Positions 13,689-61,850 of a DNA stretch of 64,000 nucleotides are shown here, one piece after another. The DNA comes from Ginglymostoma cirratum (taxonomy: Eukaryota), in contig JAHRHZ010000217.1 in assembly GCA_024137785.1 (NCBI GenBank), positions 4,235,349 through 4,299,348 of the forward strand. Direction: 5' to 3'. Position numbers and translations under genes: made by a program. The first letter of the stretch is position 1; the number at the start of each line of letters is the position of its first letter. The notes beneath the pieces are model-generated. The model was given only the letters and a program-made list of their open reading frames with translations. It ran no database searches and was not told the origin of the DNA.

Positions 13689-13943
13689 CCAATGAAATTG
13701 TGCATTTCCACAGATTTGCCTCTTTTTAAAACGCACCAAACAGTGGTCTCTTTGATATGGAACAGCCCAGTTCGACTGAACTTCAGGGTAAAGTCACAGT
13801 GGAGAAAAAAGTTGCTTGTTCAACCACAGACGAAAGCAGGACATACATGGTGAAATCAGTCACATTTTGGATATTTTCACCGATGTGCAAAGAGCAGTCA
13901 GAAGCCGAGCGAGGCGGGGTAAGCAATATGAAACTTTTTAAAT

Positions 13944-14037
13944 AGAGATAACAAGGTGTGGAGCTGGATGAACACAGCAGGCCAAGCAGCATCATAGGAG
14001 CAGGAAAGCTTGACGTTTCGGGCCTAGACCCTTCATC
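13944..14037 (-). mobile_element. 94-bp PLE-derived mini-element with perfect 15-bp target-site duplication
   Basis: Near-identical to the 3' end of the 57040 element. TGAAACTTTTTAAAT occurs at 13929-13943 and 14038-14052. Confidence 0.88.
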
Positions 14038-14496
14038 TGAAACTTTTTAAATGTTGAGTTTATCTACTTCAATTCTTTCTGACAGTGGGAGCGACTAAGG
14101 GCAGTTTGACTCAGTCAAGATACAAGGGAAGCCTGAAGCAGATTCAGTGAACAGAAAGTGTGGTCTGGAAGTATCACAGGTGAGGTCAGCACGAGCTGCG
14201 GATCTACAAGGAACTTTCAATTCATTCCCATTCAGAAAAGCTCCTGATCAAAGCATAAGCTATTCGCCCGCCTAACTTCTCATTTAATTACTCAACGCGC
14301 TATTCTGGCAGCGTGGCGCACGCCAATCATCCGTTTTACTGTTCACTTAGCTGCAACGTGGGAAGTTAATCCCAAAAGCTGAGCTACACTGCCTAGTGGG
14401 TAATCGAGGCATGAACTCTCAAATTCCATCTCTGGTCTGCATTGAATTCGGCAGGAGTGCGTCGAACTGAGCGGAAGTGAATCAGCACAAAGAGTG

Positions 14497-14620
14497 TAAC
14501 AAAAATACTCTGGACATTGGAAATCTGAAGTAAAACGGAACAGATTGGGAATGCTCAGCAAGTTTGTGGACGAAGAAATGAGTTAACCATTCAGGTCAAT
14601 GGTCCTTCATCAAAACGTTG
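14497..14620 (-). mobile_element. Degraded PLE-type terminal repeat
   Basis: GGAAATCTGAAGTAAAACGGAA...TGCTCAGCAAG...TTCAGGTCAATGGTCCTTCATCAAAAC has the same layout as 2480-2590 and 21148-21272. Confidence 0.55.
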
Positions 14621-15219
14621 CACAGGACTGCGCCAGAGATAGCGAAGAGGGAAGAAAGAATAAACCAGAGGTCTGCGGAAGGCATCACTGATTGAAGGAC
14701 AAAGCCATCGTGGTACAAGAAGTCACAATGAAAAAAAGCAACAGATTAGGAGTGAAATCGTCAGCAGTAACAGTTTTCTGATGGGGGGGGATGCAGTATA
14801 CACGATCTGAAATTGTTGAAAACAATGGAGAATTTAGAAGGCTGTGAAGTGCCTCATTAAAAGTTGAAATATTGTTCCTCAAATTTCTGTGCAGAACCAC
14901 AACTTGGGCTTCACTCTTTAGATTGAGAGACATTCTGGTCCCTGATAACACACGAGGCAGTCAAAACACATTTTTGCGTGTGTGTTATGGTGGCATGTTC
15001 TTTCCTGGAACAGATCGCCATCAAGTCTTGAAGTGGGACATTAGAGCAGAGCTTCTAGTTCAGAATCAGTGTCGCTACCCATTGTACACAAGCTCTCCTA
15101 AATGCCAATTTTATTCCATTTTAAAACTTCCCACTGTGTTTCAAGGAAGATATATGAAATAAAATTAGCAATTTCAGTAGATAGATGTCAGGATAATTAA
15201 CCAAACTCTTGGTCCAAAT

Positions 15220-15320
15220 GAGATAATAAGGTGTAGAGCTGGATGAACACAGCAGGCCAAGCAGCATCAGAGGAGCAGGAAAGCCGACGTTTCGGGCCTA
15301 GACCCTTCTTCAGAAAATGG
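15220..15320 (-). mobile_element. PLE-derived mini-element (terminal repeat only)
   Basis: Reverse complement of 57975-58074 with few mismatches; no clear TSD. Confidence 0.85.
15286..15313 (-). ncRNA. Minimal hammerhead-ribozyme-like motif (identical core to 57981)
   Basis: The reverse complement reads CTGAAGAAGGGTCTAGGCCCGAAACGTC. Confidence 0.6.
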
Positions 15321-58996: not shown

Positions 58997-59008
58997 TTAC
59001 ACGAACAA

Positions 59009-59420
59009 ATTGTATTTACATGGCATCTTTAACCTAGTAAATCATTCTAAGTCAACAAGTATTATCAAACAGAATGTGACATCAAGCCATATAAAGAGCT
59101 GCTAGGTCAGATGACCAAAAGTTTAGTTAAAAATTTGGATTTGAAGAAGTGTACATCAGGCAAGAAAGGTAGAGGAATGCAGAGAGGGAACTCCATAGCT
59201 CAGGGTTGAGGCAATTCAATGTATTGCCATCAGTGATGGAGCAACAAATATCCAGATATAGTGATAAACTAGAGGAACATAGGTATCTCAGAACGTTTGG
59301 ATAGGAGAAGATTACAGAGGTAGGGAGGGGTGAGGCCATGAGCATATTTGAAAACAAGGCTGAAAGTTTTTAAATCAAGACATTGCTTGAGCAGGATTCA
59401 GTGTAGATCAGAAAAGACAA
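59009..59420 (-). mobile_element. L2-type LINE 3' fragment
   Basis: TTGTATTTACATGGCATCTTTAAC antisense tail followed by purine-rich antisense ORF remnants; similar debris at ~22820-22990 and ~37400-37620. Confidence 0.55.
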
Positions 59421-59508
59421 GACTGAGTTAGGATTAGGTGAACAGTATTTAGGGTGTGTTCGGACGTGGACATCACAATCTATAATTAATCTTCCTTGTA
59501 TGTATGGT

Positions 59509-59835
59509 GGGGTGATGATGGCCTAGTGGTATTATCGCTGGACTATTAATCCAGAGATCCAGCTAATGTTCTGGGGACCTGGGTTTGAATCCCGCCATGA
59601 CAGACGGTGGAATTTGAACTCAATGAAATATCTGGAATTAGGACTCTAATGATGACCATGAATCCATTTTCAGGAAAACCCCATCTGGTTCACCTAAGTC
59701 CTTTAGGGGAGAAAATTGCTATCCTTACCTGGTCTGGCCTAGATGTGATGTGATTCCAGACCCACAGCAATGTGGCTGACTCTGGGCAATAAATGCTGCC
59801 TAGTCAGTGACACCCTCATCTTGTTAATGAATAAA
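59509..59835 (+). mobile_element. Full-length tRNA-derived SINE (family B)
   Basis: A box TGGCCTAGTGG, B box GGTTTGAATCCC, 3' tail GGGCAATAAATGCTG...AATGAATAAA. Confidence 0.8.
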
Positions 59836-61361
59836 GGATATTGAACAAAGAGTCAGTTTCATTAAAGTACTCATTGTTATTACACGTGTATTAATTAAAA
59901 TTTGCCTGTGTTGAGAAATGATTGCAGAATGCAATAGACGTTGGCCTTTTCTTCCTGGCACCTGGGTTGAAACCGAGATGAGAGTGATTAGACAGAAGTT
60001 TGTTATATTTTCTGCTTCGTTGTTTCTGTTTAATTTGGCTATTATGTCTCCGGCACAAAACAGCACCTAACCTTGAACTACAAGGGCACTTTGCCCTTAC
60101 AAGATGTTTACTGGAGGTAATTAAAAATAATGATACCCTGACAACTCTCTGAGATTAAAGTTGGGGCTGAGACACAGTATTAAGACAAGTGAAGGCTGTC
60201 CTGCATTGCTTTATTTGTGCCATCCCTGGCCTGAAGCATGTTGAAACTATTTAATTGAAATGGAAAGCAGTCCTTTTCATAGAATTGGTGTCTTTCACGT
60301 TGGTAAACACAAAGTTCAGACAGAATTTAACATTGTACTTTGATTACTGCGTTCAATGTACAAATATAGAAAAACAAAACATAGAAAAGTGCTAAAATGA
60401 AAATGGAGACATTTAATAAAACATTGTTGTTGAAACTTAGATGTTAGCAATTCCTGAGGACATATTGACTACATATTATAGTTGATAGTTGATGACGTAC
60501 ACATGTCCAAGAATGTAGACCGCAGTATTGTTCTATTCACTTATGGGGAAGGAAAGACTGACTTATTTGGTCACTATTAGACTGAGTGTGCAACATCCTC
60601 ACTGATAGAAGGGTATTTGTTCATGGCTCCCACAGGATCATTTTCCATTCGTTACTCTGATCAATTATCTGGGGAAACGGCGTCAAATGTGACAGGCTTT
60701 TTGCTGACGACACCACCCTTCACAGACCCGTTAATTTGCCATCAGTGAACAAGAGGGGGTTGAACAATTGTGGGCAGATATTGGGAAAAAAAAACTGAAC
60801 ACTGGCTGACAAATAGTCTGTTACCTTCAGTCGGGAGTCGACTAAATCGATGAATGTGTTAAGAATTATATCCTCCGTAAAGTGCCAAGTGTTCTTCGAT
60901 TACATGCATCTGGCTCTGCAATGTGGGTAATTAAGTCTGAATTATAATGGGGCAGACGAAGATGTTAAGCTGATTGCAGAATTAGAATTTTTAAGCAAAC
61001 AGGTTATTGGTAAAAGCTAGTTACACCAGGGTTCTACACGTGTGAAACCAGTGTTTGAACAGGGATAGAGTATTATAGGTCTGTCAGTGTGAAAATAAAA
61101 TGCATTCTTTGTTCTTAAGATGTAACTACACTAAAGCCATTAAATCGGATGGATCAAAAGACTTAACCCAACTCCTCACCAATATTCTTACCATTAAAAA
61201 AATGTAGTATATCTGGGCTTAGGTCACGTATTTGTGATAAAATCACTTGTGCTGAAGCCTGAGACATATTTATTTCAGAAACATAGCATTTGCATCATTG
61301 CATTCTGTATCAATTCAGAACAAACTTCGCTCATTGTTTTAAGAAATGTTCTATATTACTG

Positions 61362-61850
61362 AAAAAGACAGATTTCGTCAAAGCTTTTCATCTTGCACTG
61401 ATCAGGCCAATTTGCAAGAAATACCAATTTAAAGAGAACAACATTTTTAATACCCTATGAGAAGAATATTCTGGGTAGCAAGTGGATTCTGATTAGTAGA
61501 ATTGTTGTCATGGAGAATGCATCAGTTAGAAGATGACTGACAGTTAACCACCAGTTTAGTTTAAATTTAAACCAGGCAGGTTGATTTTAAATTATCACGG
61601 CATTGTCTGAGGAATGAACCAGAGAATAGCTGTCACTTATTTGTTCATTTGGAACAGGTGCAGTGTGTGTACATGTTATTTTTGTCTGCAAAGTGCAGGG
61701 CCCTGTGTCCTAATATGTATAGATTACAGTTCACAATGTGAACTCAACTCACAATCTTAAATTTGTCAATAAAATTATTAGCACAGTCAGGGTTAATTCA
61801 AAAATGTTATCCAATTTTTGAATCACAGCTAATGTTGGATAATGTGTTTA
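61362..61850 (-). mobile_element. Probable 3' end of another PLE family
   Basis: The minus strand at 61377-61406 reads CCTGATCAGTGCAAGATGAAAAGCTTTGAC, a degenerate CTGATGA..GAAA core with an AAGCTT palindrome. The downstream extent is a guess. Confidence 0.45.

Follow-up and report, generated by a model that had tools for sequence, protein, structure and literature searches.

The closest described counterparts of the repeats reported here are the minimal hammerhead ribozymes of Penelope-like elements (PLEs), with which they share a CUGANGAH core, an unpaired base after A9, a G10.1-C11.1 pair and a GAAA-CG-U-H segment without helix III, as well as a position behind the endonuclease ORF and an occurrence mostly as solo copies and opposite-strand pairs. 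Solo minimal hammerheads have been described as 'probably related to truncated PLEs', and pairs on opposite strands are likewise on record (PMC4209133). Sharks are missing from the 40 species compiled for these ribozymes (Fig. S3), and most of the helices I listed there are of 3–5 bp, with 2 bp in some insects, compared with 2 bp in the young shark copies described below; the density of the shark copies is apparently much higher, as estimated from one window. In Acropora, the Neptune hammerhead likewise combines a GGG-started stem II of four pairs with cleavage at GUC/AGC, as in the shark sequence. Truncation at the 5' end, inverted pLTRs and a tail of 30–40 bp at one end are PLE traits (PMC3846280, PMC8969392 and PMC8557442), and a CX2-5CxxC linker marks Neptune and Nematis elements (PMC8557442). 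Neptune-clade EN+ PLEs resemble the element described below in their C-terminal GIY-YIG domain, CCHH and CX2-5CxxC motifs, 5' truncation, inverted pLTRs and tail, but the shark copy is dead and lacks a reverse transcriptase (RT). In the Poseidon element PAc of Anolis (Frangieh et al. 2024, PMC11167929) the hammerhead likewise precedes a pair of fixed RT start sites that bound an optional tail, and both-strand extension and AT-rich targets are further shared features (PMC11167929). PAc belongs to another clade, however, the shark element having a CX4CxxC linker, and was tested biochemically. For the anole PLE, insertion is unaffected by hammerhead mutations, and reads ending at the cut site are absent (PMC11167929). 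Metazoan non-LTR retrozymes (10.64898/2026.07.22.740005 and PMC7229834) are also short, non-coding, PLE-related and hammerhead-bearing, but the shark copies are not tandem, their hammerhead is not canonical and their ends are not set by cleavage.

The DNA analyzed here, referred to as the window, is a 64-kb stretch of the Ginglymostoma cirratum genome surrounding protocadherin-10. Positions within the repeats are numbered with C3 of the core as +1, placing the predicted cut after +28.

A hammerhead behind PLE endonuclease ORFs

A 5'-truncated, apparently Neptune-like PLE at 57038–58074 (plus strand) comprises an endonuclease remnant, a pyrimidine-rich UTR, a hammerhead and a short 3' end. An 8-bp direct repeat (57030–57037 and 58075–58082) adjoins the 3' end, repeats of at least 8 bp being found in 22 of 296 random pairs, and a search for a tail in inverted orientation at the insertion's 5' end gave only weak local matches. 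The GIY-YIG endonuclease ORF remnant (57049–57708, plus strand) is dead: YIG is replaced by HIR and the last Cys of the CX4CxxC linker by Tyr, a frameshift lies close to the start, and RT is absent. Residues encoded by 57049–57705 are 86% identical to a Rhincodon protein with Pfam matches to both RT and GIY-YIG, consistent with the preliminary description, which had placed the motif at the 3' end of a GIY-YIG PLE. A Pfam scan of the window endonuclease itself gave no GIY-YIG match; all five homologues scanned did so, and homologues of the ORF have RT, GIY-YIG and a CX2-5CxxC linker. The C-terminal GIY-YIG domain with CCHH and upstream CX2-5CxxC was assigned by homology, the catalytic motif of the window copy being decayed. 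The element is referred to as Neptune-like, which may mean either Neptune or Nematis. None of the solved structures compared with the endonuclease alignment matched it, and no full-length element or RT of the family was found within the window.

The UTR (57709–57980, plus strand; 80–86% C+T) contains only four A/T runs of at least 4 nt, the last being ATTT at -4. An intact minimal hammerhead core, CUGAAGA-A-GGGUCUAGGCCC-GAAA-CG-U-C (57981–58008, plus strand), follows 273 nt past the ORF stop (57708), with a predicted cut at 58008/58009. No AG acceptor is present within 20 nt upstream of this core, so that a spliced helix I like that of D. virilis is unsupported.

A core-pattern scan of genome contigs returned a single match, L001; with 1.9 chance matches expected, only its adjacency to a homologous endonuclease counts as evidence. 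In L001 the same core lies approximately 88 nt behind this endonuclease (53%, E 1.6e-31), with flanks unrelated to those of the window element (12/60 and 18/60 identity). A third case is provided by an old, long, 5'-truncated PLE at 2458–3351 (minus strand; p = 0.002 versus shuffles), with an endonuclease remnant (3040–3351), UTR and a decayed core at 2589. This locus (2562) had been regarded as a mini-copy, a view at odds with endonuclease remnants that reach 3351 (tblastn E 0.001–0.007). At 57981, 2589 and L001 the hammerhead lies in the terminal repeat behind the PLE ORF.

The repeat family and its ribozyme core

The window contains 15 arms of the family in 11 insertions, approximately one per 5.8 kb. 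An nhmmer search produced 16 matches, of which that at 33928–33952 (E 0.34, inside a protocadherin exon) was left out as chance, and the reversed window used as a control produced none. Similarity to the 57981 copy exceeded that of shuffles (p = 0.002–0.006) for the loci at 2562, 14012, 14583, 15286, 21240, 46721 and 58871, and eight of the nine loci previously grouped as one repeat family are thus homologous. Short copies show 93–95% identity to the 3' terminus of the copy that carries the ORF and have no diagnostic sequence of their own. The family is real, and its members are best read as tail-end PLE fragments from at least four subfamilies that differ in age. The PLE origin, the several subfamilies and the high density proposed earlier are all supported, the count now including two unlisted head-to-head pairs (26023–26551 and 22612–22774). 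The ninth locus, at 61377, does not belong to the family (p = 0.80 versus shuffles). Its motif, CUGAUCA-GUGCAAGAU-GAAA-AGCU-U-U (61380–61405, minus strand), has lost G8, keeps four of five helix I pairs and contains an AGCU palindrome; it reads as a distinct, decayed motif resembling a hammerhead and may derive from a second PLE family. Homology searches with a protein remnant upstream of 61405 (stops read as X) gave no matches; the remnant may resemble the end of a Penelope/Poseidon endonuclease.

A full minimal-hammerhead descriptor matched the window twice, whereas 200 dinucleotide shuffles gave 0.045 matches on average and never more than 1. A full core is retained only in the arms at 57981 (plus) and 15313 (minus); in the remaining 13 of 15 arms it is absent or inside an assembly gap, so that motif counts overstate active ribozymes. 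The core is otherwise kept with U4 changed at 58871 (U4C) and 14039 (U4A), is broken at 46742, 21266, 14613 and 2589, and the half core noted at 34558 does exist, with C11.1 changed to G. ACGU followed by C (GUC), without a helix III stem-loop, was observed at 57981, 15313, 14039, 58871 and 34558. The sequence fits the PLE minimal type I hammerhead already described in the literature, in keeping with the earlier assignment: palindromic ACGU replaces helix III and an extra nucleotide follows A9. Across five divergent copies 57/75 core bases were kept versus 203/330 downstream (Fisher p = 0.023), a weak difference given that rows were core-anchored and related.

The weakness of helix I suspected at the outset is supported in young copies. 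This helix has 2 bp in 57981, 15313 and 58871, 4 bp in 21266 (where the core is broken) and L001, and 7 bp in 14039, where they derive from target DNA. Folding predictions for the two intact copies in a 106-nt context did not favor the hammerhead, with pair probabilities of 0.00–0.01 for stem II and 0.0 for helix I. Dimerization through ACGU would provide helix III yet leave the 2-bp helix I unmended. Rfam covariance models gave no hammerhead match in the window at E up to 5, or in 57950–58040 and L001 370–460 at E up to 10. All four stem II sequences originally quoted were found in the window. The covariation read from them did not rise above that of shuffles, the score being 0.167 versus 0.207 on average for shuffles, of which 427 out of 500 scored as high, in an alignment of eight window copies whose three oldest rows are partly out of register. 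Three closing G-C pairs are invariant among the quoted sequences, the rest of the variation being one U-G/U-A change and apex indels. The helix I sequence is wholly exchanged between 21266 (AGUU/AACU) and L001 (CACA/UGUG) in a single comparison. As regards an ORF start inside the hammerhead, a point of difference from PAc, neither intact core contains AUG (both read CUGAAGA), and a reading frame is open across the core and short 3' end. Seven gene-model matches were obtained from a related genome, none of them a full PLE protein.

Ends of the insertions

Two 3' ends recur, at approximately +94 and at +126 to +130 from C3, the roughly 35 nt between them corresponding to the PLE 'tail'. All visible 3' ends lie at least 65 nt downstream of the cut (fixed ends 65–100 nt). 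The solo short copy with an intact core (15219–15319, minus strand; C3 = 15313), 95% identical to 57981, has the short 3' end and starts at approximately -3 to -7, and its upstream sequence is not homologous to the 57981 UTR (p = 0.65). A second solo short copy (13944–14037, minus strand) begins at G5 (+3) between 15-bp target-site duplications (TSDs; 13929–13943 and 14038–14052), and its C3 and U4 positions come from target DNA (TTTCA versus element TTTCT), which accounts for the U4A change at 14039. The solo copy at 58867–58996 (plus strand; 79% identity to 57981) belongs to a second subfamily, has the U4C core and a long 3' end with tail, and starts at approximately -4. Older copies comprise a tailed one at 21135–21270 (minus strand), in which the 5' half of the core is broken and stem II has six pairs, and a decayed one at 14498–14616 (minus strand; p = 0.006 versus shuffles).

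All three TSD-flanked head-to-head pairs combine one short and one tailed arm. A single insertion without a complete core in intron 1 of protocadherin-10 (34453–34639; 17-bp TSD 34436–34452 and 34640–34656) consists of a tailed minus arm from +26 (34453–34557) and a plus arm from +13 with a short end (34558–34639). The pair at 46661–46828 (12-bp TSD 46649–46660 and 46829–46840), of a third subfamily, has a minus arm from -2 with GAAAC broken and a short end, and a plus arm with tail from near +46. In the pair at 26023–26551 (15-bp TSD 26008–26022 and 26552–26566) the arms are 45/45 identical and the cores are hidden by a 400-N assembly gap at the center. An old head-to-head pair without a core (22612–22774) was detected by nhmmer (E 0.0015 and 0.036) and was not among the seeds. 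Clear TSDs were thus present at 14039 and the pairs at 34453, 46661 and 26023, a length of at least 12 bp occurring in 1 of 296 random pairs; none was clear at 15313, 58871, 21266, 14613, 2589 or the 22612 pair. Truncation at the 5' end, inverted copies, an optional tail and TSDs are all present, as in EN+ PLE insertions.

Among the 11 short arms whose 5' end is visible, the proposal that mini-copies begin at the core held for six (approximately -7 to +3 of C3) and not for the rest. Clustering of these six within 10 nt gave p = 0.005 for an arbitrary 120-nt span, p = 0.048 for young arms (4/7) and p = 0.25 for strictly defined arms (3/6), 5' ends in older subfamilies being estimates as the parent UTR is lacking. 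Gene-model matches from the related genome begin at -3 to +4 in 7/7 cases and include the UTR frame in none, although splice-site choice may bias some. An upstream exon or UTR common to short copies was not apparent: of 21 pairwise comparisons the lowest gave p = 0.015, and none remained significant once corrected. The cluster speaks against plain random truncation, and a short master element would yield the same pattern. That many copies begin at nearly the same base is a real oddity and the unexplained remainder of this analysis.

Origin of the copies

The repeats are probably 5'-truncated insertions of Neptune-like PLEs that inherit the ribozyme. In the autonomous element a minimal hammerhead lies within the terminal repeat, downstream of the endonuclease ORF, as observed in the 57981 element and L001. 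By analogy with the anole enzyme (PMC11167929), the PLE protein may nick the two strands 12–17 nt apart, the stagger seen in the TSDs, at targets that are mostly AT-rich, and reverse transcription primed at approximately +94 or +126 to +130 could generate the short and tailed 3' ends observed. Extension of one nick would give a solo copy and of both a head-to-head pair, as the structure of 3/3 TSD-flanked pairs suggests, and most cDNAs presumably end early, by preference just beyond the ribozyme core. This preference has close to an even chance of reflecting microhomology, ATTT at -4 being first to anneal to the AT-rich target or partner cDNA after RT arrest; run-off of the reverse transcriptase at the RNA 5' end is a tenable explanation, if short of an even chance. 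The ribozyme would be a passenger in the copies, as ends are not defined by cleavage and the majority of cores are truncated or decayed. By analogy, the hammerhead of the parent element is probably a slow self-cleaver, assisted by dimerization or protein.

Run-off would acquire a further meaning if the copies were PLE-driven SINE-like elements, transcribed from A(-4) by an internal promoter into RNAs giving RT run-off products of approximately 98/134 nt, some short copies becoming masters. We consider this improbable, and equally so its corollary that a product from +94 or +130 retains promoter, ribozyme and RT-recognition site. The 5' ends do cluster at the first base of a 4-bp helix I, and an Inr-like sequence (consensus YYANWYY) with A at -4 is present in three of eight copies from three subfamilies. 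This pattern is common, however, occurring five times in the 277 nt that precede 57981 and at 1.2% of window positions, and the 14039 copy, beginning at +3, lacks it. An internal promoter is reported for D. virilis Penelope (PMC2377424), with a hammerhead near the RNA 5' end (PMC4209133), and algae have non-autonomous PLEs (PMC8557442), but the short shark copies have not diverged from the long element, and no Rfam match to a tRNA-, 5S- or 7SL-derived SINE head was found at any copy. A fuller version, also unlikely, has the shark PLE RNA begin at the initial base of helix I, with RT initiating internally 100–135 nt downstream to give fixed-length, strong-stop-like run-off cDNAs; these would retain promoter, ribozyme and RT start site and form a self-renewing SINE class of ~10^5 copies.

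Truncated PLE insertion also accounts for the copies better than self-excision by hammerheads, circularization and re-insertion, as in non-LTR retrozymes, an origin we regard as very improbable. Two copies do have intact cores, and animal retrozymes derive from PLE pLTRs, occur in one chondrichthyan genome and are commonly monomers (10.64898/2026.07.22.740005). Against this, the definition of retrozymes requires canonical hammerheads in tandem repeats (PMC7229834), and no tandem array of the unit (0/11 TRF rows) or adjacent direct copies were found here, whereas a retrozyme would show head-to-tail repeats with two or more hammerheads in succession. The cut site coincides with neither end of any arm, none of 11 short arms starting at the cleavage product (+29; nearest +26), and 3' ends are fixed rather than permuted. 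The 2-bp helix I and unfavorable predicted fold also argue against such an origin. With no tandem units, no cleavage-site starts and no diagnostic sequence of their own, the copies do not qualify as the retrozyme-like non-autonomous elements first suggested, and 'ribozyme-delimited' applies only insofar as many 5' ends fall where the ribozyme fold begins, none being at the cut site. That the head-to-head copies are MITEs or miRNA hairpins with an incidental hammerhead likeness is scarcely credible. Their long inverted arms and best Rfam matches, to plant miRNA models (34507–34621 and 46660–46792), would suit this origin, but every Rfam score is under the gathering threshold (e.g. 58 versus 80), TSDs are of varying length (12, 15 and 17), the arms are not equal, and the sequence also forms the 3' end of a PLE with an ORF and is found again behind the endonuclease of a distant PLE. 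The miRNA matches were rejected as hairpin artifacts below threshold.

The truncated PLE insertions described here extend a known PLE feature to sharks. Two intact cores per 64 kb (Poisson 95% range 0.24–7.2) would, extrapolated from one window to a shark genome that we take to be multi-gigabase, correspond to ~10^4–10^5 copies genome-wide; for coelacanth and Xenopus, 4,000 and 9,000, respectively, have been reported. The window provides natural PLE insertion products whose TSD length, two RT starts and pairing of a short with a tailed arm match the sole in vitro PLE study. The 5'-end hotspot could make the setting of PLE cDNA 5' ends, and the role of the hammerhead in it, testable from genome sequence alone. 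Should transcription start at helix I, the ends of the genomic copies would locate the PLE RNA 5' end and both RT starts to the base.

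Short copies as insertion products of a Penelope-like element

Self-BLAST and nhmmer searches of the window gave 16 matches at E values up to 3, and the reversed window used as a control gave none. An nhmmer match at 33928-33952 (E 0.34) lay within a protocadherin exon and was discarded as chance. There remained 11 insertions comprising 15 arms, each arm being a solo copy or half of a head-to-head pair, at a density of one insertion per 5.8 kb of the 64-kb window. Because nine of the 15 arms seeded the second nhmmer profile, independent support for these seeds comes from shuffle-tested alignments and BLAST. 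All seven copies compared with the copy at 57981 (copies are mostly named by hammerhead position C3, +1 of the repeat) aligned to it above shuffles (p = 0.002-0.006), confirming that eight of the nine loci of the preliminary description form one repeat family. The ninth, at 61377, aligned no better than shuffles (p = 0.80) and does not belong with them. A 19-nt block at +46 to +64 (e.g. 58026-58044) recurs 13 times across the window when up to three mismatches are allowed, against 0.13 expected; one occurrence falls in an exon, probably by chance. The block is a candidate binding site for the Penelope-like element (PLE) protein.

The short copies are insertion products. Target-site duplications (TSDs) of 15, 17, 12 and 15 bp flank four insertions, and 12 bp or more was seen in 1 of 296 random pairs; the long element, a 5'-truncated PLE at 57038-58074 (+), has an 8-bp repeat exactly at its 3' end, and a clear TSD was not found for six insertions. 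Copies end on the 3' side at one of two positions, near +94 or near +126 to +130, and in each of the three head-to-head pairs with a TSD a short arm is joined to a tailed one. The copies share the 5' truncation, inversion and 30-40 bp tail at one end described for PLEs in the available text of PMC8557442, PMC3846280 and PMC8969392. In an anole PLE the tail is tied to two internal reverse transcriptase (RT) start sites and both strands are extended (PMC11167929).

Young short copies share 93-95% identity with the 3' terminus of the long element. The protein of the latter has its closest relatives in Rhincodon (86%) and Stegostoma (80%), which makes a carpet shark the most likely source of the DNA. 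Homologs of this protein bear RT, GIY-YIG, CCHH and a CX2-5CxxC linker, and by these sequence comparisons the parent element is Neptune-like. The window copy is dead (YIG to HIR, a frameshift and no RT), and the 2589 copy is another long remnant of ~900 bp. At its 5' end (57038-57068) the long insertion has approximately 30 nt that do not match the PLE frame and whose resemblance to an inverted tail is unconvincing. The sole assembly gap in the window (26068-26467, 400 N) is centred in a head-to-head insertion with identical arms.

The insertions lie in and around protocadherin-10, whose exon 1 is an ORF at 31650-34265 (+; best PDB match protocadherin-10), with further exons near 35420 and at 54966-55270 (+). 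Palindromes at 34453 and 46661 lie within introns 1 and 2, respectively. Beyond the third exon identified comes the intact 57981 core, oriented like the gene; the last exon was not located in the window. Other features were LINE-like reverse transcriptase remnants at 19285-20051 (-; RVT_1 E 3.7e-5 for 19512-20051) and at 4353-4691 (+) and 38894-39158, the latter two matching each other, a degenerate minisatellite of 24/49-nt period (6989-7458) and a tRNA-like sequence at 37786-37858 (-) that may be a SINE head and scores 26.8 bits, short of the gathering threshold of 29.

The hammerhead motif and its integrity

The motif agrees with the published minimal-hammerhead consensus (CUGANGAH, G10.1-C11.1, GAAA, palindromic 15.2-16.2, NUH; PMC4209133 and its supplementary file 2, as available), bearing out its identification as a minimal PLE hammerhead, with a predicted cut after +28. 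The complete descriptor was found in two places, 57981 (+) and 15313 (-), against 0.045 expected; two further copies deviate at U4, and the remaining cores are broken, cut or concealed by the assembly gap. Rfam gave no hammerhead match in the window or in targeted scans. A small second hairpin (TCGAGGT...ACCTCGA) following CTGAAG at 15350-15380 (-) precedes the 15313 core by ~50 nt and is perhaps an older decayed copy.

Helix I has 2 bp in both intact copies. Stem II pair probability was 0.15-0.51 in isolated 44-mers and 0.00-0.01 when the intact copies were folded in a 106-nt context, where it forms poorly because downstream sequence competes. The 2-bp helix upholds the earlier view of a weak helix I, and self-cleavage without help is doubtful. 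This agrees with the cleavage results accessible in three sources: dimers of minimal hammerheads cleave at low level (PMC4209133), cleavage in the anole PLE is protein-assisted (PMC11167929) and one of nine Xenopus dimers cleaved (2026 preprint, 10.64898/2026.07.22.740005). Stem II of the young subfamily (57989-58000, GGGUCUAGGCCC) is self-complementary, and in cofolding two molecules paired through it over 12 bp, which may offer a second dimer contact; cofolding gave no such duplex for the 58871 subfamily. The frame from C3 stays open across the core and short end (57981-58073, +), and CUGAUGA copies would carry an AUG there, like PLEs with an ORF start inside the hammerhead.

A retrozyme-like nature had also been proposed. 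Retrozymes are described as tandem repeats with canonical hammerheads, giving circles (PMC7229834; 10.64898/2026.07.22.740005, as available), and the shark copies show no defining sequence feature of them. No tandem repeats of the unit occur in the window, none of the 11 short arms starts at +29, and the 14039 insertion begins at G5, within the core, as shown by its TSD.

The 61377 locus reads CUGAUCA-GUGCAAGAU-GAAA-AGCU-U-U, with four of five helix I pairs. This decayed hammerhead-like motif with its AGCU palindrome lies behind stop-ridden frames (motif and frames together 61380-62200, -) that may resemble an endonuclease end; sequence searches with the upstream reading frame gave nothing. 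The motif may stem from a second PLE family whose hammerhead has decayed, and resembles D. willistoni variants with palindromic helix III (PMC4209133 supplement, as available).

Clustering of 5' ends

After two arms with 5' ends in the gap and two long ones were set aside, 11 of the 15 remained. Six begin at about -7 to +3 (15313, 14039, 58871, 46742, 21266 and 14613), the other five at +13, +26, about +46, about +26 and about +40. Over an arbitrary 120-nt span the clustering gives p = 0.005 for these 6/11, p = 0.048 for 4/7 young arms and p = 0.25 for 3/6 strictly defined arms. A search with the translated repeat gave seven matches, all of them gene models of another genome, and all seven begin at -3 to +4, without the UTR frame, and two (P0013 and P0017) carry inverted junctions, less prone to splice bias.

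The clustered ends fit both an RNA 5' end and arrest plus microhomology, which the data cannot separate. An Inr-like pattern sets an A at -4, the first helix I base, in three of eight copies, which would fit an RNA 5' end, although this pattern is common. The internal promoter described for the Penelope element of D. virilis (PMC2377424, as available) also favours an RNA 5' end. Arrest plus microhomology is favoured by the ATTT at -4, among only four A/T runs in the 272-nt C-rich UTR, by the 14039 target, which ends TTTCA (element TTTCT), and by two short palindromes at the 34558 junction. A SINE-like scheme, in which RT from internal start sites runs off an RNA 5' end near -4 and short copies renew themselves, is improbable.

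Conservation of the hammerhead fold

The PLE-hammerhead link is already well described. A literature search covering few subscription papers returned nothing on the shark family or the 5'-end hotspot, and no paper joining hammerhead ribozyme, shark genome and retrotransposon; the family may already stand in Repbase/Dfam or in published tables, among them those of the 2026 preprint, which cover one chondrichthyan.

Variation in stem II had been taken for covariation, which the window alignment did not show: the score was 0.167 versus 0.207 in shuffles, with 427 of 500 shuffles as high, in an alignment of eight window rows with three old rows partly misaligned. Three G-C pairs are invariant in the quoted stems, which otherwise differ by a single U-G/U-A swap and by indels at the apex. 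Excess conservation of the core held to a modest degree (57/75 versus 203/330 downstream, p = 0.023) in rows that are core-anchored and non-independent.

A pattern scan of genome contigs gave a sole match, L001 (~1.9 chance matches expected), with a PLE endonuclease end and minimal hammerhead at 401-828 (-). The contig is labelled as a bacterial MAG and, from its PLE, is probably animal DNA in that assembly. About 88 nt separate its core from the preceding endonuclease, which shares 53% identity with the shark protein (E 1.6e-31) and retains YIG; helix I has 4 bp, CACA/UGUG, where the old copy 21266 has AGUU/AACU, and the flanks are unrelated to those of the shark repeat. L001 is the best outside evidence for hammerhead identity and, because its core has a different helix I and unrelated flanks and yet follows a homologous endonuclease, indicates that the hammerhead fold is conserved in this element lineage.
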